A stretch of 64,000 nt of DNA. Origin: Sphyrna mokarran (Eukaryota). The DNA lies in NCBI GenBank assembly GCA_024679065.1, contig JAGIQG010000026.1, forward strand, positions 36,890,001 through 36,954,000, written 5' to 3'. The position numbers and the translations under genes were made by a program. Below are positions 20,889-55,650 of this stretch, one piece after another. Within the stretch, counting starts at the first letter, position 1. Each line of letters begins with the position of its first letter. The notes under the pieces were generated by a model, which saw only the letters and a list, made by a program, of their open reading frames with translations, was not told the origin of the DNA and did not search any database.

Positions 20889-20988
20889 TCACACTTCAGG
20901 ATAAACTGCATTTGAGGCAATTCCACAGTTGTTATCCATGTCCTTAGCCATGTGGACATATCCTTCATTGCCCCAACTCGCTCCCCAA
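20889..20988 (-). CDS. Gene A exon 8: [32 protein letters not shown]
   Basis: 100 nt to TGA; CAG acceptor. Confidence 0.96.
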
Positions 20989-26900: not shown

Positions 26901-29900
26901 CATGAGCCAATTTAACCTTCCTGTGAAACTTGTTTCTTACCTGATTTGTACAACATGAAAGATCTGTGCTCTGCGTCTATGCCAGCAGATATCGGTCCAA
27001 CTGTAGCCACTGCTGCAGCCAAATCCGCCTCAGAACCTGCTGCAATCTGCTTGACGCCTTTACAAGTTGCGACAATGTCATTTTGGTTGAATGTACAATT
27101 GCCATCCTGGAATAAAAAGTCAAGAATGCTCATTATATGCGGGATCCCAATGTGAGCCAGGAGTTTCCTGGCTGTGTTGCCGTAACTTGTTGGAAGTGCA
27201 GCTTTCTGGAAAAGATTAAGGTGGTGTTCTGGACTTCTTTCCATTCATCGCAAGTTGAATAAACAAAACCGATCGCCAACAAAACAATGAAGTTAAAGAG
27301 AAGAGTTACCTTTGCAGTGTATGGATAGGACTGCTCAGAAGCTATTCCCTTTTCTTTTATGAATAGGAAGCCAGCCAAGACAGATCCGCCATTGCACCCT
27401 GCATTTCCTACAGCTCTGCTACAATCCATCAGGTACTGCTCACTCAGGGAAATGAGCTTTCCTGTTTTCCTAAACACTTGTCCTTCAAGTACTCCAGTCG
27501 TACTGAAAGCCCAGCACGAGCCACATTGTCCCTAACAAAGAAATAAAAGTCTCAGTGAGTGGCAAAAGGTTTTTGGGCCAGATTTTCCAAAACCTCTTTT
27601 TCCAAAAAAGATTAGCCAGGAGTGAGCTAAAGAGTGAGTTGAGGAGAGCTAAAAGGGGACACGAGAAGACTTTGGCTGATAGGATCAAGGAGAATCCTAA
27701 AGCTTTCTTTAGATATGTTAAGAATAGAAGATTGGTTAGGGCAAGGTTAGGGCCAGTTATGGACAGCAGTGGGAAGTTGTGCGTGGAGCCTGAAGAGATT
27801 GGAGAGGCACTGAACAAATATTTCTCTTCGGTATTCACGCAGGGAGATGTAAATGTAGTTGTGGAGAACACTGGGATACAGGGTTGCAAACTGGAAAGTA
27901 TTGAAGTAGATAAGGAGGATGTGCTAGATATTCTTGAGGGTTTGAAGTTAGATAAGTCCCCTGGGCCGGACGGGATTTACCCTAGGATTCTCTGGGAGGC
28001 AAGAGAGGAGATTGCAGAGCCTCTGGCTCTGATCTTCAGGTCATCGTTGGTTACAGGTATAGTGCCGGAAGACTGGAGGATAGCGAATGTGGTCCCATTG
28101 TTCAAGAAGGGGAAGAGAGACTTTCCGGGGAATTATAGGCTGGTGAGTCTTACTTCTGTTGTGGGCAAAGTATTGGAGAGAATTATTAGGGATAGGATTT
28201 ATAGTTATTTAGAGAGAAATGAATTGATTGGGGATAGTCAGCATGGTTTTGTGAAGGGTAGGTCGTGCCTTACTAACCTTATTGAGTTTTTTGAAAAAGT
28301 GACCAAAGAGGTGGATGGGGGTAAGGCAGTTGATGTGGTATATATGGACTTTAGTAAGGCATTCGATAAGGTGGCCCATGGAAGGCTTCTGCAGAAAATG
28401 CAGATGTATGGGATTGAGGGTGATTTAGCTAATTGGATTAGGAATTGGCTAGCAGATAGAAGACAGAGGGTGGTGGTTGATGGAAGATATTCATCGTGGA
28501 GTTCGGTTACAAGTGGTGTACCTCAGGGATCTGTTTTGGGGCCCCTGCTGTTTGTAATTTTTATAAATGATCTGGATGAGGGTATTGAAGGATGGATTAG
28601 TAAATTTGCGGATGACACCAAAGTCGGAGGAGTGGTAGATAGTGAAGAGGGGTGTTATAGTTTGCAGAGAGACTTGGACAAGTTGCAGAGCTGGGCCGAG
28701 AGGTGGCAAATGGAGTTTAATGTGGAAAAGTGTGAGGTAATTCACTTTGGCAGGAATAACAAATGTGTAAGTATAGGGCTAATGGTAGGACTCTTAATAG
28801 TGTTGATGAACAGAGGGATCTTGGTGTATATGTGCATAGATCCCTGAAAGTTGGCAATCAAGTCGATAAGGTTGTTAAGAAGGCATACGGAGTCTTAGCT
28901 TTTATTGGTAGGGGGATTGAATTTCGGAGCCGCAACGTCATGTTGCAACTGTACAAAACTCTAGTGCGGCCGCACTTGGAGTATTGTGTGCAGTTCTGGT
29001 CCCCACATTATAAGAAAGATGTGGAGGCATTGGAGAGGGTACAGAGGAGGTTTACCAGGATGTTGCCTGGTATGGAGGGCAGGTCTTATGAAGAGAGGCT
29101 GAGGGATTTGAGGTTGTTTTCGTTAGAAAGAAGGCGGCTAAGAGGAGACCTTATTGAAACATATAAGATGATTAGAGGTTTAGATAGGGTGGACAGTGAT
29201 AGCCTTTTTCTAGGATGGAGAAAGCTAGCACGAGGGGACATAGCTTTAAATTAAGGGGTGGTGGTTTTAGGACAGATGTCAGAGGTAGGTTCTTTACCCA
29301 GAGGGTGGTAAGGGTATGGAATGCCTTACCTACGTCAGTTGTAGATGCGCCAAGTTTGGTGCCATTTAAGAGGTTAGTAGATAAGTTTATGGATGAAAGG
29401 GGAATGGTTTAGATTAGAGGGTCACTGCTTTTTCCTAATTGGTCGGCACAACATCGAAGGCCGAAGGGCCTGTTCTGCGCTGTAATGTTCTGTGTTCTAT
29501 GTTCTTGAGCCGCGGAATCCCTAGTGACCTCCAACATGCACCGGGGAACTCCAAATGTTCGCATAATGTCTCCAGAAACCAGCCTCTGACTTGACAAGCA
29601 GTTCTGCCTGTACTGCCACAGATGTCTGAGAAGGGTCTTGCAGACCCATTGGGTAATGCGGATCCCAATTTGGGAACTCCTCTTTCAGGGTTTTTCCTTT
29701 TTTTTTGGACAATTGAGGAATTCCCAAGGAAGACCATTGTTCAGGAATCCAGCAAGAGTGAAAAAGCTGAGATAGAAAAACCAAAGCAAAGCTGCAATAG
29801 TTACTGAAATAGGTTTTCAGAGCCTGGAGAAGGGGAATTGGGAGCAGCAGTGAGTGCAATGGACTTTTATCACATTGGGAATGCATGTGAGATGAAGGGA

Positions 29901-32900
29901 AAGCAAGATGGCTATTCAGCAGGAAGAACATTCAAAGGAGCAATGATCAGAAGAATAGTGATTTAAAAAAGAAGAGAAATTAGAGAAAACTAATCTTATA
30001 ATTGTAGAAACCTACAGTGCAGAAGCAGACTTTTTAGACCATTGAATCTGCACTGACTCTCCAACAGAGCAAGCAGTCCAGATTCTAAACCTATAACTTC
30101 ACGTACTTAACACATTAATTCCCCGAACCTACAAATCTTGTGATCTTTTGGCACAATTAAAATGGTCAATCGATATAACCAAACCTACATACCTTCGGAC
30201 TTTGGAAGGTAACGGGAACACCTGCGAGAAACCCACGCAGACACAGGGAGAACATGAAACCCCACACAATCACTCAAGGCCAGAATTGAACCTGGGTCCC
30301 TGGCACTATGAGGCAGTGCTAACCACTGCGCCACAATGCCGCCCCAAGCAATAAGGGCTTTTCTTTCAGCATCAGGGTTCTAAAGAAAGTGTTTACAATT
30401 GTGGTAGATATAGTACACAAAAGAAATTGGCCTGTAATTTCTGGTTTGATATATTGTGTCATTAATTAATCATGCAGACCTCAACTCATCATAGCAATCT
30501 GATCATTCATTGTTGCTTATGTTGACTATCATACAAAGTCACAGTGTTCTTCGTTGTGTTTATAATATTGTCAGTCACTGACAAACATCTCACTTTATTG
30601 CAGCATTTCCTTACCTGGTCCTTCACTGCAGTAACATAGCCTTTGGGACGCCAGTCAACAGCTGCAGGCAGTTCAACATTCTCCTGAGCCATAAACACTT
30701 TGGAAGTTGAGTTCTCAGCTTTCTTTGTGTTAGATACAGTCAAAAACTGCCTGAACTCCTCAGTGGTCTGGAAAGTCAAAAGTTTGTTACTTTACTAAGC
30801 TTTAAAGATTCTTTTATTACTTCACAGTGAATTTACATTAAGTTAACACTATTCACCCGCTAAACATCATGAAATGAAGTCTTGAGTGCAAGAAATTGGG
30901 ATGCTTGAAAATCAGTCAACAAATGAACTTTATTGACAAGTCACATCAGACAGCTACTCTTCTGGAATGTTCTCACTTGTCCTCACTTTCTACCATACCA
31001 GTCACCAGATTCAAAGGCTCATCCACCGCCATTTCCGCCAACTCCACTAAGGTGCCTCTTCCAGAACCATCTACCTTGAAAAAATAACATTTGGTAGCAC
31101 AAAAGTTGAATGTTGTTGAAAAACGCATGAGAATATGAACTCATACCCAGGAGGCTCAGCACCTTTCCTGATTGAATATCTGACAGAAGCCACTGCTCCT
31201 GAAATTTGGGCCTGGATTTTAGCATCTGGATGATTTTTGTGCGAGGTGGGATCAGGGTCGAGATTGAAATCTAGTTGTGAGGCAGAAAACCAATAAAAAT
31301 AGATTACCAAAATGTGCTGCAGAGTATTATGTTGCAAGGAGTGGAGTTCCTGCCCAAAGGAACCTGACTGATAGACTGGTGACCTAACCGATAGGAATCT
31401 ATGTCACAGGGATGAAGTCCTAAGAGTAAATGCAGAGAATTAGGCAGAAGGCTAAAGTGCAGGATCTTGAAGGTAGAAATTTCTGGATTACTACTGGCGC
31501 TACATGCTAGTGAGAGTAGGAATAGGAAAATTAGGCAGATGAATGCATGATATGAGAACTGGTGCAGGGATCAAGGATTTAGATTTGTGGATCATTGGGA
31601 TGTCTGCTATGGAAGGGGTGACCTGTCCAAAACGGACGGGTTATATCTGAAACTGGAGAGGGATTAATATCCTGGTGGGCAGATTTGCTGGAGACACTTG
31701 AGAGGGTTTAAACTAGTTTGGTAGGGAGGTGGAATCCAAAACAGTAAGTTGATGACAGCCCAGAGCTTAAAAAGAGTACATTAAATAGTGAAGGCAGTGT
31801 CATTAATCCTAGTACCAGACAGATCATGCAAAAACAGGACAGAGAGTAAGGGAAGTCCAGATTAGACTGCATTTATTTCAATGCAAGAGACCTGATGGGC
31901 AAGGCAGATGAGCTCAAGGCATGGATGGGTACATGGGACTGGGATACTGTAGCAATTACTGAACATGGCTAAGGGAACAACAGGACTAGCTGCTCAATGT
32001 TTCAGGGTATAGATGCAATAGCAAAGGTAAAACAGGAGGTAAGAGAGGAGGGGGAGTTGCATTTTTGATTAGGGAAAGCATCACGGCAGTTCTGAGAGGG
32101 GATATATCCAAGAGTTTGGCCACGGTTTCTCTATGGTAGAACTGAAAAATAAGAAGGGAGAAATCACTTTGGTAGGGTTATACTACAGGCCCCCAAATGA
32201 TCAGTGAGAAATTGTAGGTAAGGAAACGGCTGCAAGAAAAATAGGGTGATAATTGTAGGGAATTCTAACTTTTCCAATATTTACTGGGACTGCCATGGGA
32301 TTAAAGGTTTGGATGGAGAGAAATTTGTTGAGTGTATTCAGGAGGAATTTTTCATTCAGTATGTGGATGGCTCAACTACAGAGCGGGCGAAACTTGACCT
32401 CCTCTTGGGAAATAAGGAAGGGCAGGTGACAGATGTATTAGTGAGGGATCACTTTGGGACCAGTGACCATAATTCCATTAGTTTTACAGATAGCTATGAA
32501 GAATGATAGCCCAGAAGTTAAAATTCTAAACTGGGGCAAGGCCAATTTTAATGGTATCAAACAGGGACTTTCAAAAGTTAATTGGAGGCGTCTGTGGGAA
32601 GGCAAAGGAACGTCTAATAAGTGGAAGGCTTTCAATAGAGTGTTAATCAGTGTTCAGGGTAAGCACATTCCTCTTACAGTGAAGGGCAAGGCTACTAGAA
32701 GTAGGGAACTCTGGATGATTTGGGACATTGAGGCTCTGATCAAAAAGAAAAAGGAGGCACATGACATGTATAGGCAGCTGGGATCAAGTGGATCCTTTGA
32801 TGAATGTAGGGGGTGCAGGAGTTAAGAAAGAAATCAGGAGGGCAAAAAAAGGACACGAGATTGCTTTGGCAGATAAGGCAAAGGAGAATCCAAAGAGATT

Positions 32901-35900
32901 CTACAAATACATAAAGGGCAAATGAGTGACTAGGGAGAGAGTAGGGCTCCTTAAGGATCACAAGGTCATCTATGTGCGTGAATCCACAAGACACATACTT
33001 CTCATTAGTATTAACTGTTGAGAAAGACATGGATGTTCAGGAACTTGGGGAAATAAATAGTGATGTCTTGAGGAGTGTACATATGACAGAGAAGGAAGTG
33101 CTGAAAGTCTTAAAGCGCAGGAAGGTAGATGAATATCCTGAACCTGATGAATTGTATCTCAGGACGTTGTGGGAGGCTAGAGAGGAAATTGCAGGTTCCC
33201 TACCAAGATATTTTAGTCATTGTTAGTCACAGGTGAGGTGCCTGAAGGTTGGAGGGTGGCAAATGTTGTGCCTTTGTTTAAAAAGGGCTGTAAAGAAAAG
33301 CTTGGGAACTACAGGTTGGTGAACCTCACATCTAAAGTGGCTAAATTGTTGGAAGGCATTCTAAGAGACAGGATCTACAGGCAATTAGAGATGCAAGGAC
33401 TGATTAGGGACAGTCAGCATGGCTTCGTGAGTAGAAAATCATTTCTCAAAATTTGATTGAGCTTTTTAAAGGGGCATCTAAGAAGGTAGGTGAGGGCAGT
33501 GCAGTTGATGTTGTCTACACGGACTTTAGCAAGACCTTTGACAAGGTACAGCATGGTAGGTTGTTGGGATCCAGGATGAGGTAGCCAAATGGATACCAAA
33601 TTGGCTTGATGACGGAAGACAGGTAGTTATACAGGACTGTTTTTCAAACTGGAGGCCTGTGAACAATGGTGCGCCTCAGGGACCAATGCTGTGTCCACTG
33701 TCACTTGTCATTTTTATTAACGATTTGGATAAAATTTAGGGGGCATGGTTAGTCAGTTTACAGATGACACCAAGATTGGTAGCATAGTGGTCACTGAAGA
33801 AGGTTATCTCGGACTGCAACGAGATTTTGATCAATTGGGCCAGTGGGCTGACAAATGGCAGATGGAGTTTAATTTAAATAAATGCGAGGTAATGCATTTT
33901 GGTAGATTGAACTGGGCAGGACTTACTCAGTTAATGGTAAGGTATTGGGATAGTTATAGGACAAAAAGACCTAGGGGTACAGGGTCATAGCTCCTTGAAA
34001 GTGGATTCACAGGTGGACAGAGTGGTGAAGGAGGCATTTGACATGCTTTGTTTCATTGGATGGACATTGAATACAGGAGTTGGGATGTTTTGCTGAAGTT
34101 GTATAAGATATTGGTAAGGTCACACTTGGAATACTGTGTACAGTTCTGGTCACCTTATTGTAGAAAGGATATTACTAAACTAGAAAGCATGCAGGAAAGA
34201 TTTACTAGGATGTTACTGGGACTTGATAGTTTGAGTGATAAGGAGAAGCTGGATAGACTGGAACTTTTCTCTCTAGAGTATAGGAAGCTTAGGGGTGATT
34301 TATAGAAGTCTATAAACTAATGAGGGTCATACATCAACTAGACAGTTAATATCTTTTCCCAGAGTCTAAAACTAGAGCGCATAAATTTAGAGTGAGAGGG
34401 GAGAGATACAAAAGGGTCCAGAGGAGCATTTTTTTCACACAGAGGGTGGTGTCTGGAACAATCTGCCAGAGGTAGTAGCAAAGGTAGGTACAATTTTGTC
34501 TTTTAAAAAGCGTTTAAATAGTTACATTGGTAAAACAGTATTGAGGAATTTGCACCAAAATGTGGGCAATTGGGACTAGCTTAGTTGGTTTAAAAAAAGA
34601 GGCAGCGTGGACAAGTTGGGCCTAAGGATCTGTTTCCATGCTGTAAACCTCCATGATAGGACCAAAGCCTACATGAGGAAGAGGATGTGTTGGGAAAGTG
34701 AGAGAGATCTCAGGAGAGCTAGAAAGCAGAGAGAATTCAAATTGAGAGGGTTGGAATGGTTCAAAATCATAGGGGAAGCTCCAGGTTGCGAGGGAGTTGT
34801 CCCCGGTTTAAGTGGTCCAGATCATTGACATGTCACAAATTAAGGAGTGAGTGTGGTAATAATGGAGTGGGATGGGGCGGGGAGGGGGCAAGGGGCAGTT
34901 TCTATGATGATTTGAACGTCCCAAAAGAGAAGGAGGGGGGTCACAAACATGGGACAGGTTGCATGGTGGTTTCAGGGGAAGCCTATCAGCAAATGACAAA
35001 ACCATTTCCCACAGGCAAATTGAATCTGAAACAAAAGCAGAAAATGCTGGGAACATCAGCATGATGACAGTATCCGATTCTCACTCTAACAGAGAGCCAT
35101 CCAAACTTGGAGCATTAGATCTAGTCTTTCTCCAGACATGCTGTCCGACCTGCTGAGATTTTCCAGCTTTTTCTTTTTTGTTTCATTGCTGAAAACCTCA
35201 CTTAAAAATGGAAATGTGGCTTTGAGATAGGTTTGGATCCTGAATCTGATTCCTGGCATTTTAATCTGTGACATGACTCCTAACCCATCCATTATTGGGA
35301 GTTAATATTCAGTCCTTGGTTTCTCCGGTGTAGGGAGCTATCAGTTTTATCAGCAGCTGTTCATGTTGGATTCAGGAAGATGGTGGCAATGAGCTCACGT
35401 GTTTTATAATGAATAGCACTGTTCACTTTGCCAGCTGAGCAAGGTTCCCCTCTCGTGGAAGCTAATACCCATGTTCCTCAGTTGCCTATTGTCAACTGGT
35501 AATTATTCCTGTTAATGGGAAAAAGGCAGGATATATTTTAGATTAATATAGCTTCATGTTAACCTGCCTACGATAGAAGATTGCTACAGTATCAATCCTC
35601 CATGGGATACTCAATTATACAATGGCTGATTTCAAAGGGATACAAGTGTGTTTGGATGCTAGGATTCTTCTCACTCTATCCCAGGTATTTGTAAAGAGTG
35701 GGCTTAACCAGGCAAGCAGAAAGGAACTTTGTGTTAATAAACTGTGTGGTTTATCATTCCCTATCTCTCCCCACTGCCCATCAACTTTGTGTTCTGACCT
35801 TGGTCTCCTGCACACATCTGTCTCCCTTTGATGCGCAAATGGGACAACACAATTAAATGCCATTCCCCCATTGTCTGACATTCCTTCCCTAAATACTACC

Positions 35901-38900
35901 TCTTCCTACTTTAAGGGTCTCTTTAAAACTAACTCAAGCTCCATCCTAATATCTCCTTCCATATCTTATTGTTTACTTTACTAAGGGAAAGTATGTTGAC
36001 ACAGTTTCATGGTCATCATTAAACTTATAGGTGAACGAATATTATTTGTTTAAGTGTCTCATTCTCTTGGTTTTAAGACTCTTAAACATGGTATCAAGTG
36101 GCTGGATTAACCAAAAAATGTCTTACTTTGTAGATGCTGTCTAACTTGTTGAGTATTTCCAGTATATTCTGTTTTTATTTCAGATTCCTAACCTCTACAG
36201 GATTTTGCTTTTGCTTCAAATTTGCAATCGAGACTTGGAAACCTACAAAGTCTTTGTTTTATTGAATCATAGTTCATCTACAATGCACTATCAATCTTGA
36301 TTCATTGAAAGCACACTCAGTAGTGAATATTTCTCACCTCCATTTAGTACATACCAGATCTCCAAACTGATTCATTCCCACAGAAAATGTGTGTTTCCCC
36401 ATTGAATGCTCCAGGTTATGCTGTTCAATGAATCTCATATTATCTTCCCAAATCATTCTTCGCTGATTTCTCTCGTTCTAAAAACATTCACAGCAAAGTT
36501 AAATTTTAACTCCTACCATTACAAATTTATTTTATCACTTCAATAATACAATGGGAAAGAAACAGATTTTATATTCCACATTGATTTTCCCATTACTGTC
36601 ATAGCTCTGATTATCTGTGCTACAAAGATCATTTTTGCTGTTTAACAACAGATCTGTTGGATGGTGACTCTCCTCAAGGGCACCATCACTACTGGAAGTG
36701 GGTAAATTTCATTCTCTTCTCCCTGACCAGTTCTTTTTTTTTCAGTTTAATTTCCACTCTGCAGTGATAATCTACCATTAAATTGGAGGCAAATATTGTT
36801 GCTGGAGCTTTGTCCTTACAACAGCTTAAAGCACTGTGCACCACTACTTTTAATAGGAGAAGCACTCTTTTAAATGTAGATATCTGGTAAAAATCTCTAA
36901 TTCTTTCTTTTTATGGACCTTCTCTCCTGGTTGTTAGAATGGGCACAATTAACTGTTAACATTGCTGATCATCTTGGACAATATCTATAGAAGAGAGTCC
37001 CTTAGATTGGCCTTTCCTATTACTACCACCCAGTTCCGACCATCATCCTACCTGGATATCTAATCACTAAATGTAATAACTTGTCTGATTGCTTAAAAAG
37101 CCCCATATTCAGATTGTTAATGGCATAGAAATAGGTACCATTGCAATAACAGTAGATGATTACAAAGGAAATGAGTACAACTGCGGGAAATTGATTTCAC
37201 TGTCAGTAAATATGAGGTCATTCACCTTGGACAGGATAGAACTGAGCACTATCTAAATGGTGGAAAGCTAGAAACAGTGGCAGACAACTCACCAAAGTTT
37301 CTTCTACAGCACCTTCCAAACCTCTGACCTCTGCCAGTAAGAAGGGCAAGGGCAAAAACAAAAACTGCTTTAATTCCTCAACAGATTTGGAGTCTCAATC
37401 TCATACCTTGTTGACTTTAGGTCATTTCCATAAATTATTATTATGTAACGTTTTTGAATTGCTTTTCAGTAAGATTCCTTGACAAAATCAAAACTTATCG
37501 AAAAAGAGAGATAGGAAGGGAATATAGGAAATAATCTATCAGACTCTGATTATTTAATTAATTAAAATAATTATGCATTTCATCTTTAATTTGGAGAAAC
37601 AGTGGAAAATAAAACCCAATAAGAATTGATTAACAATTTAGTTGTTGAAATTATACACAATTATTCCAATACCTTCATGGCAAACCTCCCAATTTACAGC
37701 CTCAGTAAACTTGACTCAGTCAAAACTTTATGACTGTATCCCAACCCTCACCTAATTCTGTTCACCCATTATCCCCTCTTCTCGCTGACTTACATTGTCC
37801 AGAAAGGCCCCGTTCTAAAGTTTTCTCTTTTGGATCTCCAACTTGGGTCAGTGTTTGTGGGAGTTTGCACATTCTCCCCGTGCTTGCGGGTTTTGTCCGG
37901 GTGCTCTAGTTTCCTCCCACATCCTAAAAACATGATTGGTGTTAACAAATTATCCCTAAATTAGACCTCCCTTAATCTCTAATTTTCTAAATTTGCATGC
38001 CTTTATTGTGGAGTCCAAGAGGCATAGACAAAAGTTGTAGGTCGATGAAGGATTGGAATGAGGCATTCACTGAGTGTTAAAATGCATGGTGCGGGCTTGT
38101 AGGGCCGAAGGGCCTGTTTCCTGTGCTGTGTTGTTCTTTGTTTTTAATACCTATCCATGGACTCAATCTTCCCTCCCTTCCAACTCAACAAATCTCCAAA
38201 ATCTCAGCTTCCTCCATCTCAGAGCCCTTGTCCATTCCTGATTTACTCTGGAATTCCCTCCCTAAATCTAGGGATCTCTTTACCTCTCTTTCCTCCTTTA
38301 TGTGACATAGCGACACAATGGTTAGCATTGCTGCACCACACCACCAAGGAGCAGGTTGAATTCTAGCCTTGGTTGACTGTTTGTGTAGCATTTGCACATT
38401 CTCTTCATACATGCATGGGTTTCCTCTGGGTGCTTTGGTTTTCTCTCACAGTCCAAAGATGTGCGGGTTAGGTGGATTGGCCACAGTAAAATTGCCTCTT
38501 GATATCGGGGGATTAGCTGTGTAAATACATGGAGTTATGAGGATAGGCCCTAGCTAAAAAAGAAAAGAAGTGGGTTGGTGCAGGTATGATGAGGCGAATG
38601 GCCTCCTTCTGCACTGAGGGTTTCTATGATTAACCAACCTCTTTGACTAAGTTTTGTCTTAGCTGTCCCAAACTTCCTGGTCATGCTAAATTCTCCCTCA
38701 GTGTACCCAAACAGGCATTGCAGTATGGCAACTAGAGGACTTCCACAGTAACTTGATTGCAGTGTTAATGTAAGCCTACTTGTGACTAATAAATCAACTT
38801 TTGAACTTGAAAACTTCTTTTCACGGCTTAATGTTCAATTTTCTTTTATAAATGCCCCTGTGAAGCAATCAGCATGATAAATTGTTTTGAGTCAAATTTG

Positions 38901-39107
38901 AATTGTGCCAAATTGCTACAACTTTTACAAAGTAAATTCTCTGTAGAATGATCAACATTTACATCTCATTACCTCTTTGTACTGCTTATTATGAAATGAA
39001 GTCCAACTATTCCAGCCTTCATCCAATATTGGGTCAAACAGGAATGAGCCAGAGACTGAATCCAGAATGCAGACTACTGCACAGCCAGCAAACAGAGTGG
39101 ACTTCAT
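20889..39107 (-). CDS. Cathepsin L-like (L/S/K clade, C1A) preproprotease, gene A; join of 7 coding exons, 334 aa
   Basis: Exons 38973-39107, 36355-36477, 30615-30767, 27310-27531, 26941-27106, 23932-24037 and 20889-20988 sum to 1005 nt in an open frame with GT-AG introns. Signal peptide, I29 propeptide (ERFNIN-like, GMNQFGD), [15 protein letters not shown] and WIVKNSWG motifs are present. Confidence 0.96.
21480..23105 (-). mobile_element. Tx1/L1-clade LINE ORF2 fragment in gene A intron 7
   Basis: GC-rich; RT motifs [53 protein letters not shown]; frameshifted. Confidence 0.88.
23932..24037 (-). CDS. Gene A exon 7: (G)[34 protein letters not shown](S) (catalytic His, Asn)
   Basis: 106 nt, phase 1/2; TAG acceptor, GTAAAT donor. 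Confidence 0.96.
24889..25133 (+). mobile_element. HE1-like V-SINE, 5'-truncated
   Basis: V-domain and tail. Confidence 0.8.
25636..26697 (+). mobile_element. Young 5'-truncated CR1 LINE in gene A intron 6
   Basis: Open 314-aa ORF2 C-terminus with FADD; (gttctat)n tail. Confidence 0.95.
26941..27106 (-). CDS. Gene A exon 6: DGNCTF...[20 protein letters not shown](G)
   Basis: 166 nt, phase 0/1; CAG acceptor, GTAAGA donor. Confidence 0.96.
27310..27531 (-). CDS. Gene A exon 5: [10 protein letters not shown]...GCNGGSV...YPYTAK (catalytic Cys)
   Basis: 222 nt, open frame; TAG acceptor, GTAACT donor. Confidence 0.97.
27606..29504 (+). mobile_element. Young 5'-truncated CR1 LINE in gene A intron 4
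   Basis: Complete RT domain ([29 protein letters not shown]); single-base frameshifts near 28769 and 29210 relative to sister copies; gttctatgttc tail. Confidence 0.95.
30004..30343 (-). mobile_element. HE1-like V-SINE
   Basis: Head ggcggcattgtggcgcagtggttagcactg on the minus strand, V-domain, tail. Confidence 0.8.
30615..30767 (-). CDS. Gene A exon 4: TTEEFRQ...[19 protein letters not shown]
   Basis: 153 nt; pro/mature junction and oxyanion Gln; CAG acceptor, GTAAGG donor. Confidence 0.96.
31400..34656 (+). mobile_element. Old degenerate CR1 LINE in gene A intron 3
   Basis: End of ORF1, endonuclease (LDLLLGN, GTSDHN), RT ([17 protein letters not shown]) and [12 protein letters not shown]; same subfamily as 1485-5818. 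Confidence 0.9.
36355..36477 (-). CDS. Gene A exon 3: [41 protein letters not shown]
   Basis: 123 nt, phase 0/0; ERFNIN-like and GNFD propeptide motifs; TAG acceptor, GTATGT donor. Confidence 0.96.
38305..38630 (+). mobile_element. HE1-like V-SINE
   Basis: Head, V-domain, ttctatgatt tail. Confidence 0.8.
38973..39107 (-). CDS. Gene A exon 2 (first coding): [45 protein letters not shown]
   Basis: ATG at 39107; acceptor AG at 39118-39119; donor GTAATG; signal peptide followed by LDxxWxxWxxxHxKxY. Confidence 0.93.
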
Positions 39108-45118: not shown

Positions 45119-45124
45119 TTTATT
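45119..45124 (-). terminator. Candidate polyadenylation signal of gene B
   Basis: AATAAA on the minus strand about 150 nt after the stop codon. Confidence 0.55.
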
Positions 45125-45272: not shown

Positions 45273-45372
45273 TCACACCTCAGGATAGACTGCATCTGTA
45301 GCAATTCCACAGTTGTTTCCCATATCCTTTGCCATGTGGACATATCCTTCATTGCCCCAAGTTGCTCCCCAA
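45273..45372 (-). CDS. Gene B exon 8: [32 protein letters not shown]
   Basis: 100 nt to TGA; CAG acceptor. Confidence 0.96.
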
Positions 45373-48300
45373 CTGAAATCAAAGCAAAGCTTGTGTTATA
45401 GCCCCGGTAAAGCAAATCTTTAAACATATTTTTTAAAATAAGAGGTTTTGCTTTTGATTATTGGTACAAAGCGCAGGACCAGGTTCGATCCCAAGATTGG
45501 GTCACCACGCAGAGTTTGCACATTCTCCCCATGTCTGTGTGGGTTTCTACTGGGTGGTCTGGTTTCCTCCCACAGTCTGAAAGTTGTGTTGCTTAGGTGC
45601 ATTGGCCCGAACTGATGCCGGAGTGTGGCGACTGAGGGAATTTCACAATAACTTCACTGCAGTGTTAATGTAAGCTTACTTGTGACTATTAAAAAAATAA
45701 ATTTTACAAAGTGGAGAGCTGTGGATTGCCCACTGTAAGAATAAAACTAGCTTCTTAAAATAAAACTGAACCAGATTGCTGAAGGCAAAATTTCCAATTG
45801 GGTTATACAGGAAAGTCAACAATCGTTTCACAAGGAAATCCATCCCAATGGGCTATTTCTGTACTTGTGATATCGAGTGCTGAATAGTTCAACCTTCAAT
45901 CAATATTATGATTGGAGCAAAATGCAATGAGGCTTCATATGGCATATTTCCCACTAGTTGAACCCAACATCACCGCCTGCCCAGATTTAATATCAGCCAG
46001 TAATCAAAGCCCTGAGGATTTAAGTTTTAAATGTCCCATTTTACAAATAAAGTGATCGCTTTCAGCAAAGGGACCTATTTACATTGTGACAAGCCCCAAA
46101 GAGATGTCCCTTTTCCAAGCCAGTTGCTGCTACTCCAAAATCTTTGAATGGTGCTGATTCTGTATGAGGAACAGAGAGTGTGGGGGAAGTAGAGGCACAG
46201 AGGTTTTGTTGCCATGCAAGATCCACCTCAGGTCATCTGCAGCAGAATTACAACTGCCAGCATTTCTACAAATTTTCTGTTTGTAGGGAAAAATCAAAAA
46301 GACTAAAGATTTAAAATAATTTTGGTCAAATGATGACACAGTAACACAGCTGCTTCACAGCTCCAGGGACCTGGGTACAATTCCCAGCTCGGATCACTGT
46401 CTGTGTAGAGTTTGCACATTCTCCTTGTGTCTGTGTGGGTTTCCTCCGGATGCTCCGGTTTCCTCCCACAGTCCAAAGATGTGCAGATTAGGCTGATTGA
46501 TGATGCTAACATTGCCTCTTAGTGAAAGGGATTAATGGGTAAAATATGTAGGGATGTGGGGGGTAGGGCCTGGGTGGGATTGTGGTCAGTGCAGACTGGA
46601 TGGGCCAAAGGATCTCTTTCTGCACTGTAGGGTTCTATGATTCTATGATAAGGAAGGTGTTTGAAGGAAGGTCCATCTGTTCACTAAATGCATTGCTTTA
46701 GCTATATCTTATTGAAAATATTATAGTTCTATATAGATTTACTATATAATCAATGTATATAATTTATCTATACTACTATAGATTTTTAACTCTAATTAAA
46801 ACTCTGAGATTAAATGGATCAGCCCTGACTCCCTGGCAGGGTACCGTACCTGTTTTTAACAATCCAGTATGGCTTCTGATTTTCAGTCCCATACCCGACT
46901 GCCAAAACTTCATGATCAAGTTTGTCTGAACTACAGCGTGGCTCATAAAAAATACCTGGAGAAAAAGAAACATTTATACCTGTTACCATAGAATTGCAAT
47001 CTCATTCTAAAAGGAGAAGACAACATATTTGGGAGAATTACTGGAAATTGACAGCAGTTAAAAACTATTGCTTTGCACTTGCCTTTCTTTAATAGATCAA
47101 GCTCCCCCAAAGATCAGGTGGCAAGAACGCTATTTTTAACATTTCTACTAATATTGGATTACACTCCGTTATCACGACGTCAACTGTTCCTCAATTCAAA
47201 GGTGACCTCTGCTCAGGGTCCTGGATTTCTGCCATGTGTCTTCATGCAACTGAACAGTTCACAGATCTTTGGGTAGGTAGGCCAGGATATCCCGAGAGGT
47301 AGGGGGATCCTATCTCTGTACACTAGGGCTTCCACAACACAAATTTATTTTGGGCCAAATAAACCTAATGGACTTTAACCCGGTGTTGTGAGACTTCTAC
47401 TGTTTACCCCAGTCCAACGCCAGCATCTCCACATCATCACGAGGGCTTTTCTAGAGGAACCTCTGACTGGTCTTTATTTTCAGACAAAATCTCAAGAACA
47501 ACACTAGGAACTCACCATTGTATTCATCAGCCTGACTAAAGAATCTGATTAAGTCAAACATGAAGATCTGTGGATTGTGCTGCAAAGATTTAGACTTCAA
47601 GAAATATCATCACAATTCTTCAAAAGCTTCATGAAGCTACGGCTTGAACAGCAGATCTGGAACAGATATCTTCAAAATACAGAAGCAAGGTTGTGTGATA
47701 GCTCCCATACTACTTACACTCTACCTGAGGACATCAATTCACCTCAAAGATCTACTGTCCTCCAGTGTGAGTATCAAATATTCTCCGGATGAAAAATTCT
47801 TAAACCTCAGTCGCCTCCATGCCAAAACAAAACTGACCACCATCGACAAGGTCTACAGTTTGCGGAAAATTGCAGGGTCATTGCCTACTCTCCTCTAGGT
47901 TTGCAAACTGCTCTCAATATCTTCAGACCTCTCATTCTCCATTTAATAAATGACCAAAGCCTATCACTCATGTTTTTGATCAAGATGTAAGTGGCATATA
48001 AGTTAAAAATACTAAACTTGTAACAATTTCACCATAATTAACCCTCAACTTCGCATCTTGAAATTTTATTCAGTTCATTCCGAATTTGCTTCAACTGTGA
48101 ATAGGTCAAATGTGTGCAGTAGTTATGAATTCTGTCACTTACCTGATTTGTACAACATGAAGGATCTGTGCTCTGCATCTATAGAAACGGATATTGGTCC
48201 AACTGTGGCCACTGCTGCAGCTAAATCTGCTTCAGAATTCTTTGGAATAATTCTGACCCCATTGCAAGTGGCAACAATATCATTTTTGTTGGATTTACAA

Positions 48301-51300
48301 TCCCCATCCTAAAAGCCAAGCAGAAAGCTGAGGCAAAGATTTACTCAAATAACAACACAAAAATGATTAAGCCAGAAAACGGAATAAATTCATCCCTTAT
48401 TGATGAATCATACTCCTTCAAAACTTTTATTCTCCATAATACTTTTAAGTGCCTCATAAACATATTTTAATGGTTTCCAATTACAGTTTACTTCACAAGC
48501 CGTTTAGCATTTGCGTGTAAGCAATTGAATTTAATTTTTTTCCTGTATCTATTCTTAATTTTAAATTGTGTTCCTTCCATGTAAATGTTCATCAGGCCTA
48601 TTTTTTGGGTCATTTCCTTCAAACATGAAAGCTTCAATTCTGTTACATCAGAGTCTCCTTTCCTCGAAAGAAAGGCCCTACGTTCTTAATTTTCTTCACC
48701 ACTAGATTCTTTTGATACGTTCAGATAAACCTTGCTCAGGTAAACTAAGCAGCAGAATTTGTGTAATTCTTTGTTTAACCTGTTGCTTCGCTGGGATAAA
48801 TTCATCACCCACCAATGTACCAGGACTTTTCATATGAACTTGACAATCTTCAGCACATTGTGTTTGGTCATGCAGTGAGATTTATGATGTTCACACAATG
48901 GCCCAGGTTTTTCAGGGGAGAACCGGAGGGTGGTGTTTAAGGTCCCAAATCTTCCCAGGATTAGATTTATTGAATTTGGCGAGGACATTTTTCTTTCCTC
49001 CTACCATCACTGTTAGAAATCCATAAAAAAACTTACACCTTGGTCAATCAGGAGTAACCAGGTATTTATCTGTTCTGTAATTAATAAAATTAAACACCAA
49101 TTAAACAAATTAATGGTTCGGCAGAGACAAGAAGGATCAAAAGGCCTGTTTCTGAGTTGTAATTTTCTATTGTTCTATAGTAAGTGCTGTTCATGATAAT
49201 TTGAACATTGTAAAGCTGAGGATTCTGTATCCTAAATTGATTGTTGGTTTACTTATTAGCGTACTCAGGATTGTTCAAAAACTGCTGCCTAATTACATCT
49301 AACAGTAGATACTTTGTTTTGGGCTTTTCAATCATGGGCTGTTGGGTTAAGAAGTAGTCAGTCTATAGGAGGAGAGCATTTTCCTCTGGAAGGCTGTGAT
49401 GGGGGCCTAACACTCTGCAGGAATTCTTGGAGTCTCCAGTATATCTGAACCAGGAGGCTGACAAAAACTATCAGAGAATAATTCAAACAAACAAAAACTG
49501 GCCCTGAAATGGAAAAAAAAGCATTCTTCGTCTTAAGTAAAACAAAAATTCCAAGGACATCAAAAAGATCCAAGGATCTTTTAGAGGTATATAAGATTAT
49601 GAGGGATATAGATAGAGTAAATGGTGGTAAGCTTTTTCCAGACATTTTTAGAAATGGATAGAACGAGGGGTCACGGGCTCAGGGTGAGGGGGGCTATGTA
49701 TAAGACGAATATTAGAGGCCAGTTTTTCACACAAAGGGTAGTGGGGGTGTGGAATGCACTGCCGAGTAAGGTGGTGGGAGCAGGCACGCTAGGGTTGTTT
49801 AAGGGTCTCTTGGACAGCCACATGAGCGGTCTGCAGATAGAGGGATATAGCAGGACTGTTTGAATATCGGGAGGACCAAATAGTAGTAGACTATCTTTTA
49901 GTTTCGTCTCGGGAATGTCTTAGTTTTTTTTTTAGCATGTTTAATTAAGTATTATTTGTTTCCGCAGGCAATTCGGTCCACCTTGTTGACCAACAAGGGG
50001 CATGCATGCGGCATGTCGTGTGAGAGCTGCTCTTGGAGGTTGCTTCAGGAGTTGCCTAGTGCTTCACGTCGTCAGTGTATGCTTAAACTGGACCATCTGA
50101 TGGGCAACATGACAGCTCAGAGACTATCGCTGTTGCTGTGCTGACACATGGATTTGGGCCTCTGTCTGCGGGAGTTTGCGCGTTCTCCCCGTGGTTGCGT
50201 GGGTTTCCTCCGGGTGCTCCGGTTTCCTCCCACATCCCAAAAATGTGCTCTTAGGCTGATTGGGTAACAAATTGTCCCTATATTGGTCCCTATATGGGAA
50301 TCTTCAACAATAGGCATAGCCTAAAGACAAGGATATGTCATTAGGACGTTAGGACGGCAGCATGGGCTCGTTGGGCTGAAGGGCCTGTTTCCCGTGCTGT
50401 GTTGCTCTTTGTTCTTTGTTGACATTAAGGAGAAAGGAAGTTACCTTTGCAGTGTAGGGATAAGATTGTTCTGAATTAATACCATTTTCTTTTATAAATA
50501 GAAGGGCCCGGACTTTATATCCACCATTACAGCCTCTGTTTCCAATGGCTCGGGTACAATCCATCAGGTACTGCTCACTCAGGGAAATGAGCTTTCCGGT
50601 TTTCTTAAACACTTGTCCTTCAAGTACTCCAGTCGTACTGAAAGCCCAGCACGAGCCACATTGTCCCTGACATAAAGAATCAAAGAGGGAAACGTTTGCG
50701 ATCATTTGTGATATTTTATTTCACTGAGAAATCTCCACATAAAACTCAACAGTCATAGTGGAGAACACCATCAAATTTCAAAACATTTTGACTTCAGGCA
50801 AAAGGCTCCAACCAGACCTTCCATCTCTTATACAACTCTCCTTTCACTAATAATGATTTTCTTTCTTATATACATTTTGGCATTATGAGACTGAGGATGC
50901 TAATTTTTCAATCATACAAATGTCAATGTTTGATGGAAAACTACCCATTAATCACCTCCGTCCTCACTAACTCACATTGGCTCCTGGCCTGGCAACACTT
51001 TGATTTTAAAATACTCATTTTTTTTCTCATATCCTTCCTTCTTCATTCCATTTCCTATCTCCATAATTTTCATCAGCCCACAATCCTCCCTTCTGTGCTG
51101 CTCCAAATTTGTCCTCTTGCAAATTACCCAATTTTAATTGTTCCAAAAATTGGCAATCTTGTTCTCTGTTGCCAGGGCTAGAGGGGATCTGGAATTCCCT
51201 CTCCAAATCACTCCATCTCTTTAACTCTCTCCCTCTGTCTTTAAGATTATTCTTAAAACCTCCCACTTTGACCACACTTATGGTCAACTGTCCTAATATC

Positions 51301-54300
51301 ATCCTTGAAGGCTCAGTGCTAAAATCCTCAATATTGCTCTAATTAAATTTCCTGAGGTCTTTATCTCTGTTAAAGGGACTACATAAATGCAAGTTCTGTG
51401 CTAAAAATGAGCATCCTATGATTAGCAGTACTTTGCTTATCTTTACCTGGTCCTTCACTGGGGTAACGTAACCCTTGGGACGCCAGTCAACAGCCAAAGG
51501 CAGTTCAACATTCTTCTGTGCTATAAACACTTTGTATGTCAAGTTCCCAGCTTCCTTTTTGTTGAACTTATTCAAAAACTGTCCAAACTCCTTAGTGGTC
51601 TAAAAAAATCAAGAAAATCTGAGTTTTATTAATCACAATATACATGGGTTCAATGTATGATATGACTTATGTACATCATTTCAATAAATCCTCATCATTA
51701 AAATAATGGTTTAGGATTTGCTGGAAGGTAGATGATCCAGTGAGTTTTAGCAGTGGAATGAAGTGGACAGCAGCCTTTAGAAGATGGCGCATGAGAAATT
51801 GGAGCAAAGTGGGAATTTGGTTCAGAGAAGAAGTTTTTGCTTTTTTGCATTCTAACTTTCTCACCCTTCAGAAAGTAGTCTTGTCCTCCGGCAGGAGTGG
51901 AGGAATATTTGGTGAGTATTTCAGCCACTGTGAGGCAGTGATGGAGAAATAAAGAAACAAATGATGCAGTCACGAGAAATTGGTAAGTTGACTGGCCAAT
52001 AAGTACTCAGTGCCAGGGGTAGTGAGTGAAAAACTTGTGTCTGAAGTAAAGGAAAGTTGGAGCCAAATATAGTGATGCAAGTAATCCAAAATAGAATAGA
52101 TTTAACATAAAGGATGTAAACAGAATGCACTTAGGGTTTAAAACACTGTACAATTTGGTGGTTATTTAACAAAAATGTACAAAAAGCACCATAAATAGAT
52201 AAATAATTTAATTAAATAATTATACAAAATACATTGAGGATGGTAGCATTGTGATGTATCGAGGTTGCAGCATCTGAGAACTCATGGATAACATTGTGAT
52301 TCACAGCAAACCCACTTGCAGTGAGTGTTTGCAGCTTGAGGAACTTTAGTTCAGATTTATTGAATTGGAAGCTGAGCTGCAAATACTGCGACACATCAGG
52401 GGAGGCTGAGAATTACCTGGACGCTTTGTTTCTGGAGGCAATTACACTCCTAAGATTCCTAAGGGCTTCTAGTTTAGAAAGTGGGCAGGGACGAAGTGGG
52501 TGTGGCCGAAAGTGAGGCAGGTAAGGAAACGCAGAGAGCAGGAGTGTCAGCCTCTGCAATTGTTCCAACGGGTTAAAGATTCTTTGAGCTTGTTTGAGTT
52601 TTATTAATCATAACATACATGGGTTCAGTGTATGATACGTACATCATTTCAATAAATCCTCATCATTAAAACTGGGAGTTGCAGGGTGAGTGAGCTGGCT
52701 GGCCATGGTACAGAAAGTTGGGAGAGCAGATAAGAATGTCATGGTATTGGATGCATTGCTCTGTAGCAAGGAGCCAGAGACCAGACGGCTGCGTTGCCTG
52801 CCCAATGCCAGGGTTAGAGACATCATCTCAGGACTGGAGATGAACTTGCAGTGAAAATAAAGAGAAAACATTCATTAATGAACGTAATCAAGAATTAAAG
52901 AGAAGCGCCTTTCTCAAAAGACTGCTTAGAGCGTGGAACTTGGTACCAAATGGAGTTGCTGAGGCAAATAGAAGGAATGTTTTTAAAGGGAAGCTGGATA
53001 AACACGAGCTTAATTTTTCTGGCCATTCACAGTAGTGGGACCCACTGGTCCTGCTGATGGCATATCCCCCTCCCCTGCCCCACCCCCCCACCCCACCCTG
53101 CCATGGGTTTCACAATGGAAACCCTTTGACAATGATGGCACCATTAGCTAATGACAGGTTACCTTCCTCCACTGGGAAATCCCACCTATGAGCAAGAAAT
53201 GGTTGGAAAAATAAGTTAAATAAGGAAGGCTGGGGATTGTGGGGGTGTCCATGTGGAGCATAAACACTGATTGGCTTGATGGCCTGTTTCTTTGCTATAA
53301 ATTTGATGTAATTCCATGAAATGTAATTCTGTACATACCAGATCTCCAAACTGATTCATTCCCAATGTAAATGTGTGCTTTCCCATTGAGTGCTCCAGAT
53401 TGTGCTTTGCAATATATTTCATATTGTCCTCCCACACCATTCTTCTGTAATTTGCAGAATTCTGAAAAGTAATCCAACAAAATCCAATTCAAGTGCATTT
53501 TATTGTTGTAAATATTGGTAATATTTTAAAACTAAATTCCTGGAAAAAAAAATCCCTTTAACCCGTTTATCACTTCAAAACCAATGCATATTAAACCAAA
53601 GAAAAATTCTTGCAGTAAACTGTGAAGCTATAACTATCAGGGAATGCAATAAGGGCAGCATTGTAGCACAGTGGTCTGCACTGCTGTCTCACAGCACCAG
53701 AGCCCCGGGTTTGATTCCCAGCTTGGGTCACTGTTTGTGTGGAGTTTGTACATTCTCCCGATGTCTGTATGGGTTTCCTCCAGATGTTCCAGTTTCCTCC
53801 TGCAGTCTGAAAGGTGTGGCGGTTGATCTGAACAGGCGCCAGATTATGGCAACTAGGGGAATTTCACCGTAACTTCATTGCAGTGTTAATGTAAGCCTTA
53901 CTTGTGACTAACGTAAGGTGGTGTTTTTCGCCTTAGAAAAAAGAAATCCGAGAGGTAACTTGATGGAGATCTTTAAAATTATAAAGGGTTTCATAGGATG
54001 GAGGAAAGATATTACATCTTGTGGAGAAGTCTATAGCTATATAGGATAGTTACTACTAAATCCATTAGGGAATTTGAAAGAAAGTACCTCAGCCAAAGAA
54101 TGCTAAGTATGTGTTTAGAATGACAACAAATATTGAGGTAAGTAGCATAATACATTCAAGGAAAATCTGGATAAATACATGAGGCAGAAATGGATAGAAG
54201 GGTTTGCTGAAGGACTAGATGTAGAGGAATTGAAAAAGGATTTGTGTGGAGTATAAATGCCAGTACAGACCAGTTGGGCCGAATGGTTGTTTGTTTTTAA

Positions 54301-55650
54301 ACTCAGTGCTTAAATTCTTTGGAACAAGATATTGGTGAATTACTGCGGATGCCGGAATCTGAAAGAAAAACAAAAAATGCTGGAAAATCTCAGCAGGTCT
54401 GATAGTGTCTGTAGGAAGAGAATGGAGCCAACATCTTGAGTCTGGATGACCATTCATCAGAGCAGAAGACAAAGAAGATAGGATGAAATTGATACAGTTG
54501 TGGTGAGGGGTTGGGGAGGGGAGTGGCAGTGAGCAGGGGAAGCCGTGGGGGCTGATAGAGAGTCAGCACTTGGTGGAGACAAGAGAGATTGACAAAGATG
54601 TCATAGGCAAAAAGACAAAGAGAATGCAAATGATAGTAATCTTAGTTAAGAATTAATTCAGGTGAAGACTTGCTCCCTGTTGACCAGCCTATCTCAGTTA
54701 GACAGTTGTAAAATCTTTTGAATTTTGGATGCATTAATGCAAGCTTTCATTTTCTCTCAGTCAGTGAAAGGACTCTTCACCCTCAGGGCCTCAGAGTTAT
54801 GGGCAAACCTTCCTTTGTTACAATGAGCTTTGTGGTTCCCTAATACAAGCATTTCATTCAACCTCCAGTCAGGAGGCCAAAGTGTTGCTGGACTTCAGCC
54901 ACAATAGGAGACTGACTCGATGCTCAGAAATTCTGCTGATGTATGAAAATGCCCTTGATCAAATTACATTGATCATCTGCCCACTTCCACTCAGCAAACT
55001 GCCAATTCCAGTGGCTGACCCTGCTGGGAAACTCTAGCCTTTTCCAGCCCTTCTGCTATGGAAGCCTCTCATCTGGACTCTCTGTTCAGTTATTCCACCT
55101 TCCGATCCTTTAGAATGCATAAGCACCAAGTTATCAAAATTCCAGAACCATTATGCCATTCTGCAGTAAGTCCTGCTCACTAGTTATCCCAGCCTCAGAT
55201 CCATAATTGCTGGTCTATCATTCCTCTATGCCCAATCACTTTAAATTCTTATCCTTCTTCACATCTTGCTCTCCTCCATTTCTGCTCCTTTCTTACAACT
55301 GGAACTGACACTGAAAATTGTGTCTTGCATAGAATAAGGTCAATCCACAGGACGCTGCTCAATTTCCCCACTGAGAAGCTCAAACTTCACCCCCTGTACT
55401 TCTGACCTCTTTCATCCCCTTTTCTCAGTGAAAACATTCAAGTCATTTTGATGAGCAAGCAGCAGGAAATCATAATAGCTGCTCAGTAAGTGTCAGTTCA
55501 GAATTTACTGCTTCTTACCTTTTCGTACTGCTTTTTATGAAATGACTTCCAGCTGAACCAGGCTTCATCCAGAGTTGGGTCAAACATGGAGCTGGAAACT
55601 GTTGTTAGGATGAAGAGGAGCTCACAGCCCACAATCAAAGAGAATTTCAT
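45273..55650 (-). CDS. Cathepsin L-like (L/S/K clade, C1A) preproprotease, gene B; join of 7 coding exons, 333 aa
   Basis: Exons 55519-55650, 53339-53461, 51447-51599, 50445-50666, 48143-48308, 46850-46955 and 45273-45372 sum to 1002 nt in an open frame with GT-AG introns; catalytic residues intact. Confidence 0.96.
45474..45695 (+). mobile_element. V-SINE with alternative tail, gene B intron 7
   Basis: B-box ggttcgatccc, V-domain, gcagtgttaatgtaagcttacttgtgact tail. Confidence 0.8.
46332..46648 (+). mobile_element. HE1-like V-SINE
   Basis: Head, V-domain, ctatgattctatg tail. Confidence 0.88.
46850..46955 (-). CDS. Gene B exon 7: (G)[34 protein letters not shown](S)
   Basis: 106 nt; CAG acceptor, GTACGG donor. 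Confidence 0.96.
47470..47960 (+). mobile_element. RTE-clade LINE RT fragment
   Basis: [35 protein letters not shown]. Confidence 0.75.
48143..48308 (-). CDS. Gene B exon 6: DGDCKS...[20 protein letters not shown](G)
   Basis: 166 nt; TAG acceptor, GTAAGT donor. Confidence 0.96.
49573..50420 (+). mobile_element. CR1 3' end with a long 3' region containing a V-SINE core
   Basis: ORF2 end ([25 protein letters not shown]) stops at 49863; V-domain about 50155-50250; CR1-type tail gggctgaagggcctgtttcc..gttctttgtt. Confidence 0.75.
50445..50666 (-). CDS. Gene B exon 5: [10 protein letters not shown]...GCNGGYK...YPYTAK
   Basis: 222 nt; CAG acceptor, GTAACT donor. Confidence 0.97.
51447..51599 (-). 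CDS. Gene B exon 4: TTKEFGQ...[19 protein letters not shown]
   Basis: 153 nt; TAG acceptor, GTAAAG donor. Confidence 0.96.
51620..52671. repeat. About 80-bp direct repeat pair (51620-51703 and 52595-52671)
   Basis: tgagttttattaatca..catgggttca..gtacatcatttcaataaatcctcatcattaaaa occurs twice, with one 7-nt indel. Confidence 0.93.
53339..53461 (-). CDS. Gene B exon 3: [41 protein letters not shown]
   Basis: 123 nt; CAG acceptor, GTATGT donor. Confidence 0.95.
53653..53911 (+). mobile_element. V-SINE with alternative tail
   Basis: Head, V-domain, gcagtgttaatgtaagccttacttgtgacta tail. Confidence 0.85.
54340..54640 (-). mobile_element. Penelope-like terminal fragment
   Basis: Minus strand ctgatgaatggtcatccagactc..cagacctgctgagattttccagcattttt; similar motifs at about 10530-10610 and 35025-35185. 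Confidence 0.55.
55519..55650 (-). CDS. Gene B exon 2: [44 protein letters not shown]
   Basis: ATG at 55650; acceptor AG at 55661-55662; donor GTAAGA; signal peptide. Confidence 0.94.

Follow-up and report, generated by a model that had tools for sequence, protein, structure and literature searches.

In this study, we analysed a window of 64,000 nucleotides from the genome of Sphyrna mokarran (contig JAGIQG010000026.1, our G000:C838:36890001-36954000), whose minus strand carries a cathepsin L-like protease gene, here called gene B (55650-45273; coordinates are window positions unless given in Mb), in which all three residues that form the floor of the S2 subsite (68, 133 and 160 in papain numbering) are altered. 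In papain-family proteases the S2 subsite determines specificity and, to our knowledge, nearly all vertebrate cathepsins favour a hydrophobic residue at substrate position P2. Gene B instead encodes Lys68, Ser133 and Glu160, a combination retained in its orthologues throughout the sharks and rays sampled. On balance, we lean slightly towards gene B being an active C1A protease in which these three residues would form a salt-bridged polar S2 floor, predicted to favour P2 residues that are small or polar over Phe or Leu.

Conservation and rarity of the S2 floor

The S2 set of gene B consists of Y67, K68, S133, L157, E160 and D205, and its catalytic set (Q19/C25/H159/N175) is complete, as the initial annotation of this DNA had stated; the papain numbering was checked against an alignment of a catshark orthologue to human procathepsin L. 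The use of 67, 68, 133, 157, 160 and 205 as S2 positions in that annotation agrees with published descriptions. Residues 68, 133 and 160 form the bottom of S2 in cathepsin S, with 205 at its far end (PMC9712828), and a second article lists positions 67, 68, 133, 157 and 205, the last as highly variable (PMC4336737).

Conservation was counted on one sequence per species from 21 sharks and rays, one record being partial, with two isoforms omitted as well as one unnamed contig protein. K68, V69 and S133 are present in 21/21 orthologues, E160 and L157 in 20/20, and the propeptide segment N-K-F (K77p, F78p) again in 21/21, while the catalytic residues are retained in every aligned sequence. Residue 67 is aromatic in 20 of the 21 species (Tyr in 16, Phe in four, Cys in one), and residue 205 is Asp in 13 of 20, Thr in three, Asn in two and Ser in two, but never Leu. 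These counts bear on the proposal in the initial annotation that K68, E160 and D205 form a co-evolved triad, for which co-occurrence across elasmobranchs had been suggested as a check. K68, S133 and E160 do occur together in every orthologue that covers them, whereas D205 fails as a member, being Asp in those 13 species only, not diagnostic against the sister gene described below, and matched by acidic residues at 205 in many other proteins. Because D205 varies and is common elsewhere, what is conserved as a unit is the S2 floor K68/S133/E160, and the triad was dropped in its favour on the ortholog counts and the sister-gene comparison. For the same reason, neither a K68-D205 bridge nor a cathepsin-B-like role of D205 in binding P2 Arg is required.

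The rarity of these residues was assessed against 280 other cathepsin-L-like proteins from the searches, a background biased to cathepsin-L relatives from which B orthologues and 25 chimaera records had been removed, along with two fused gene models, a read-through fragment, any protein longer than 450 residues and any in which 68 and His159 were not aligned. K68 and E160 occur together in none of the 280. Position 68 is uncharged in all of them, and position 160 is Gly or Ala in 278, with Glu in one and Lys in another that is apparently a misbuilt model. The pair was likewise absent (0/139) from a more distant set, also cathepsin-L-biased, made up of the top 150 representatives of 50% clusters, 11 of which were dropped for gaps; E160 was found in three of these 139 proteins, K68 in two and Asp or Glu at 205 in 31. 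Among the records left out of the set of 280, the partial P0047 carries K68, and the fused model P0161 has K68 with G160, a combination that most likely joins halves of gene B and its sister gene. Each of K68 and E160 is therefore rare but recurrent, and the pair was seen in the elasmobranch B clade only. The database models P0001 and P0161 both look like fusions of adjacent cluster genes, with false residue combinations as a possible result.

Comparison with a tandem sister gene (20889..39107, minus strand) provides a second line of evidence. This gene is intact, encodes 334 residues in seven coding exons laid out as in gene B, and is identical to it at 179 of 216 mature positions (83%). Its S2 set is S67/V68/G133/L157/G160/N205, of which S67, V68, G133 and G160 are fixed in 17 sister-gene sequences. 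When 20 B sequences were set against those 17, 13 positions within residues 86-333 shared no residue, 11 of which fall within the cleft or next to it (77p, 78p, 61, 67-70, 133, 160, 161, 163). The mature diagnostic positions, also 11 (61, 67, 68, 69, 70, 133, 160, 161, 163 and two others), take in four of the six positions of the canonical S2 set (hypergeometric p 5e-5), or five of seven if S3 residue 61 is added (p 2.5e-6); residues 157 and 205 do not distinguish the two genes. The ratio of nonsynonymous to synonymous divergence (dN/dS) between the two mature domains is 0.17. This cleft-focused divergence is stronger evidence than invariance as such, because 158 of the 216 mature positions are invariant across gene B sequences anyway. 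The sister gene's pocket is open and cathepsin-S-like at 133 and 160, and its propeptide has lost the Gly-Phe pair, with Ser, Asp or Pro in place of Phe78p; it is an unusual enzyme in its own right.

The two genes are not equally diverged along their length. Between window positions 50666-50556 and the corresponding sister-gene exon, which starts at 27531, synonymous differences number 1/34 against 69/204 elsewhere (Fisher p 7e-5, for a stretch picked after the data had been seen). This low-divergence tract covers the catalytic Cys region and stops just before the S3/S2 loop, and at one variable residue inside it the two genes agree in nine of 14 species pairs. Judged from these sequences, the near-identity of the Cys25 region (the 5' half of exon 4) is likely to reflect gene conversion with the sister gene.

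Predicted specificity and alternative readings

In the mechanism we favour, K68, S133 and E160 would take the place of the usual Met/Ala/Gly at the S2 floor, K68 and E160 would pair and neutralise each other, and S133 together with a small polar residue at 205 (D/N/S/T) would act as their hydrogen-bond partners. A raised, shallow polar floor of this kind should disfavour P2 Phe or Leu, and the zwitterionic site would suit Ser, Thr, Gly, Pro or an amide residue (Asn/Gln), with Asp or Glu perhaps taken at acid pH if E160 were protonated. The acceptance of amide and low-pH acidic P2 residues is our boldest guess and is made by analogy alone with legumain, an enzyme of a different fold whose zwitterionic S1 selects Asn, plus Asp at low pH (PMC4357240). 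The zymogen would be routed via a glycan on propeptide residue N104, the sole N-glycan sequon of gene B, to lysosomes or be secreted, and would be activated through removal of the propeptide; the N104 sequon appears compatible with lysosomal sorting.

Charged S2 residues have precedents in bromelain and in cathepsins X and B. In stem bromelain, a lone Ile-to-Glu change at 68 raised Arg-Arg activity 250-fold and lowered Phe-Arg activity 90-fold, so that Arg took the place of Phe as the preferred P2 residue, and E-64 and cystatin binding became weaker (PMC7658999), from which it follows that charge at position 68 matters. E-64 and the related probe DCG-04 have Leu at P2, and their reaction with bromelain is about 1000-fold slower. 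Stem bromelain, with Glu68 and Asp209, and cathepsin X, with Asp at 68, thus resemble gene B in that a charged residue at 68 on the S2 floor, as described for these two enzymes, resets P2. However, both are negative at 68, where gene B has Lys, and bromelain has Ala at 160, where gene B has Glu; gene B is an animal gene of the cathepsin-L lineage. Cathepsin K and an engineered proline-specific cathepsin L share Tyr67 and Leu157 with gene B, residues tied to a restricted, Pro-accepting S2 (PMC9712828), although gene B is without the Met68, Ala160 and Leu205 of cathepsin K. It is reasonable to predict that the P2 specificity of the gene B product is altered, and it is likely that gene B and its sister gene divide substrates, because the sister gene went the opposite way (G133/G160, open pocket). 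A fuller proposal joins these elements into an elasmobranch papain-fold endopeptidase whose zwitterionic Lys68/Glu160 S2 would read polar or acidic P2 residues (Asn/Gln; Asp/Glu at lysosomal pH), which would resist E-64 and cystatins, and which would be paired with an open-pocket sister whose catalytic core gene conversion would hold uniform even as the pockets stay distinct. Such a protease would be bromelain with the charges reversed, and the literature searched described no vertebrate cathepsin of this specificity. Taken as a whole, this conjunction is doubtful.

Several observations weigh against a salt-bridged polar floor. The invariance of K68/S133/E160 is weak evidence alone, given the large invariant fraction of the mature domain noted above, and the 21 species form one clade and represent a single evolutionary event. 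In addition, E160 occurs without K68 both in chimaeras, where two of three copies have N68/E160 and the third S68/G160, and in P0177, a sawshark paralogue from another branch with A68/E160/D205; a K68-E160 bridge is therefore not obligatory for E160. A further point concerns Phe78p, which the gene B propeptide keeps in all 21 species. The pocket that holds this residue in procathepsin L is, we assume, S2. In procathepsin L, Phe78p sits buried within a hydrophobic pocket (PMC6059440), and Ile86 of the papain propeptide, whose position we take to be equivalent to that of Phe78p, blocks S2 (PMC4924875). As Phe78p is conserved, the S2 pocket of gene B may still take Phe. The neighbouring Lys77p of gene B replaces the Gly77p of procathepsin L (PMC4842899).

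The retention of Phe78p is also the first point in favour of the alternative that the pocket still binds hydrophobic P2 residues, with Lys68 acting as a mimic of Met, its amine paired with Glu160 under the floor, and the pair tuning no more than pocket depth, stability or pH range. The walls of the pocket are indeed hydrophobic, given the aromatic residue 67 and Leu157, and pH-gating of a subsite by lysine is described for cathepsin S (PMC12444987). However, the sister gene has the more open pocket and is without Phe78p, so that Phe78p is not a simple mirror of the pocket. Moreover, Glu at a floor site that is Gly or Ala in 278/280 relatives should fill P2 space, and the single charge at 68 in bromelain strongly cuts Phe-Arg activity (PMC7658999). 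We regard this alternative as unlikely.

The Lys77p substitution, found in all 21 species, bears on another possibility, namely a preference for basic P2 residues (Arg/Lys) as in cathepsin B or bromelain, achieved through E160 and D205, with Lys77p as the matching plug of the zymogen. Two acids face one base in the 13 of 20 species with D205, and Lys77p could reach these acids; furthermore, in chimaera relatives, two of the three of which have E160, this stretch of the propeptide reads N-R-R. The chimaera copy with G160 has N-R-R too, though, and the sawshark paralogue with E160 and D205 has an ordinary NGF. D205 is replaced by Thr, Asn or Ser in 7/20 species, and K68 occupies the site of bromelain's Arg-binding Glu68, where it should repel a basic P2 residue. 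A basic preference is accordingly improbable in our estimation.

Since the S2 floor carries two bulky charged side chains, one of them beside the catalytic His, it could also be that the cleft is effectively blocked and that a weak or dead protease is retained as a binding protein, such as an inhibitor decoy or a zymogen-like partner. In line with this, the near-identity of the two genes around Cys25 may reflect gene conversion and not selection. Against this, H159, N175, W177 and the S1 glycines, which lie outside the converted tract, are kept in all covering orthologues, and a dead paralogue in another shark's cluster (Heptranchias P0225) shows the usual sign of such loss, a Cys-to-Ser change at the catalytic Cys. 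A blocked, non-catalytic protein is the least likely of the rivals and, in our view, a poor prospect.

Should the polar floor that we favour be borne out, a Lys/Glu S2 floor conserved in sharks and rays would widen the specificity range known for the papain fold and could serve as a template for selective protease engineering, with the closely similar open-pocket sister gene as a built-in control. Such an enzyme would likely cut proteins at sites other than those used by ordinary cathepsins. The pocket of gene B addresses no long-standing open question, but points to an unstudied protease cluster, specific to cartilaginous fishes, with varied pockets. The suggestion that this was an undescribed enzyme holds in part: orthologues of gene B, among them XP_038633954.1 of the catshark and XP_055514756.1 of the skate, are already in RefSeq under automatic names (procathepsin L-like, cathepsin L2-like), whereas the pocket and its specificity appear undescribed in the literature searched. 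That search, whose coverage excluded most subscription journals, returned no account of gene B or of a Lys68/Glu160 pocket; in the results of one query, no article contained 'Glu160', and 'Lys68' appeared only in an unrelated docking paper.

Gene structure, fold and expression

Gene B spans ~10 kb and comprises seven coding exons, separated by six introns that are GT-AG without exception, with an open frame for a 333-residue prepro-cathepsin L-like protein. All four motifs of the initial annotation lie on the minus strand, as do all features of the gene given here, but the interval assigned to the gene (45273..50666) was too short, as it omitted the first three coding exons with the signal peptide, the propeptide, the start of the mature domain and Q19. 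Exon 1 (55519..55650) holds the start codon, a signal peptide predicted from its hydrophobic N-terminus, and the start of the propeptide. Exon 2 (53339..53461) encodes the core of the I29 propeptide (PF08246, E 1e-11), for which ERFNIN and GxNxFxD are the motif names: GMNQFGD is intact, and the ERFNIN-like motif is kept save for its first Glu, which is Ser. Exon 3 (51447..51599) encodes the part of the propeptide running across the active site, including N76p-K77p-F78p (51572-51564) and the N104 sequon, and the mature-domain start with the oxyanion residue Gln19 (51449-51447). Exon 4 (50445..50666; PF00112) encodes Cys25 (50651-50649), the S3 residue R61 and Y67-K68-V69-R70, with the codons of Y67 at 50519-50517 and K68 (AAA) at 50516-50514. 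Ser133 (TCT, 48185-48183) lies within GPISVSIDA in exon 5 (48143..48308), and exon 6 (46850..46955) encodes Leu157 (46920-46918), His159 (46914-46912), Glu160 (GAA, 46911-46909) and Asn175 (46854-46852). Exon 7 (45273..45372) encodes Trp177 and Asp205 (GAT, 45296-45294) and ends in the stop codon TGA, ~150 nucleotides beyond which is a candidate polyadenylation signal AATAAA (45119..45124). The pocket residues had been placed on separate exons, and K68, S133, E160 and D205 are indeed encoded by four different ones. Upstream of the coding exons, at ~58050-57986, a TA-rich stretch is followed by ~50 nucleotides and a good splice donor (AAG|GTAAGC), a possible non-coding first exon of gene B.

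An assembly error, raised in the initial annotation as a possible explanation of the unusual pocket codons, and a pseudogene were both ruled out by the open frame, the GT-AG introns and the orthologues with the same residues. A contig from run X1, perhaps of the same sample, also showed 0 differences from the window over 50425-50584, a check that takes in the K68 codon, the E160 and D205 codons lying outside it.

The Pfam search, run on two gene B exons and two orthologues, matched PF00112 to the exon at 50666-50445 (E 5e-27) and to the orthologues, and together with Gln19, Cys25, His159 and Asn175 places gene B in papain family C1A, with the I29 propeptide of cathepsin L-like enzymes. The hydrophobic or small S2 floor of that group (Met68, Ala/Gly133, Gly/Ala160) is lacking, as are the conserved acidic 205 of cathepsin B and cruzain and the combination of Tyr67 and Leu205 with Met68 and Ala160 that marks the P2-Pro collagenase type of cathepsin K, Tyr67 itself not being universal among the orthologues. 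Human cathepsin L/V is the best match in sequence and structure, sharing the signal peptide, I29 propeptide and Q/C/H/N layout (E 8e-110 for the catshark orthologue against human procathepsin L); however, the S2 set of human cathepsin L is L/M/A/M/G/A against Y/K/S/L/E/D, and gene B is not its orthologue. An AlphaFold2 model was built from a 140-row alignment for P0128, the orthologue of the white shark, which is 208/216 identical and has the same pocket residues, with a predicted local distance difference test score (pLDDT) of 90.3, lower (71, 63) across propeptide residues 91-110, and a predicted template modelling (pTM) score of 0.88. The best Foldseek match of this model was procathepsin L (1cs8; TM score 0.90, root-mean-square deviation 1.7), and VIA-align placed procathepsins K (Z 45.6) and L (Z 45.4) in a tie (root-mean-square deviation 1.3, 310-311 residues aligned), so the fold predicted for this orthologue is that of cathepsin L. 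A search of the ESM Atlas returned generic papain clusters and nothing more specific.

Evidence of expression comes from a relative, in which a contig of 1,468 nucleotides encodes 312 residues of a gene B orthologue (P0140); this implies a spliced transcript, because the gene spans ~10 kb here. No RNA record was listed for the catalytic exon of gene B. An intron-spliced contig of run X24, whose RNA status is a guess, was not counted, since it continues with sequence of the sister-gene type, and a cathepsin L fragment listed in a shark skin proteomics article could not be tied to gene B (PMC10707392).

The cathepsin cluster and its history

Matches to the catalytic exon number 15 in the 2.77-Gb genome, seven of them on the minus strand of C838 at 36.65-37.04 Mb and another at 38.08 Mb, and among 16 matches to the His exon, Glu follows His in gene B only. 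Close relatives of gene B were found in cartilaginous fish exclusively, the closest being a Mustelus protein identical at 210 of 216 mature positions. In an IQ-TREE analysis of 27 sequences, the B clade (support 86) and the sister-gene clade (99) grouped together (97), with three near-identical chimaera copies as sister to both (70). A larger FastTree tree supported the grouping of chimaera, B and sister-gene sequences at 0.998 and that of B with the sister gene at merely 0.418. As both genes occur in sharks and rays, their duplication is at least as old as the shark-ray split. E160 probably predates K68 and probably has more than one origin.

An identity of gene B with CTSL/ctsla was ruled out, since shark ctsla forms a separate clade that groups with teleost and tetrapod CTSL in our trees, in which gene B nests within a chondrichthyan radiation; a separate gene with an ordinary GGLMD motif (L003) lies on another contig of this genome. 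The phylogeny of a carp study reports chondrichthyan expansions of the vertebrate cts12 clade (PMC13095802), which fit the cluster of gene B and offer a lead only, the accessible text not discussing shark S2 residues. The cluster may belong to the cts12 clade.

Pockets vary elsewhere in these gene families. The Pristiophorus paralogue P0177 (F67/A68/A133/E160/D205) appears to have gained an acidic pocket independently, has an acidic stretch in its propeptide, and is a candidate for an enzyme accepting P2 Arg or Lys. The chimaera copies P0142, P0146 and P0148 are separated by branch lengths of 0.01-0.03 and yet differ at 67-69, 133, 157, 160 and 205, which suggests fast change focused on the pocket. 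The tandem cluster of cathepsin-L-like genes on C838 (L004-L009; 36.65-37.04 Mb and 38.08 Mb) likewise varies at residues 67-69 (WME, RVS, LMG, WSS, WMS). A second small cluster, at ~32.97-33.05 Mb (L010, L011, L026, L030, L031), consists of divergent papain-family genes in which CSSCY replaces CGSCW and an acidic loop precedes His. Within the window, reading frames matching RVT_1, which we take to be fragments of retroelements of the long interspersed nuclear element type, lie at 4500-5516, 21698-22363, 25588-26601 and 27507-28844, three of the four in introns of the sister gene.

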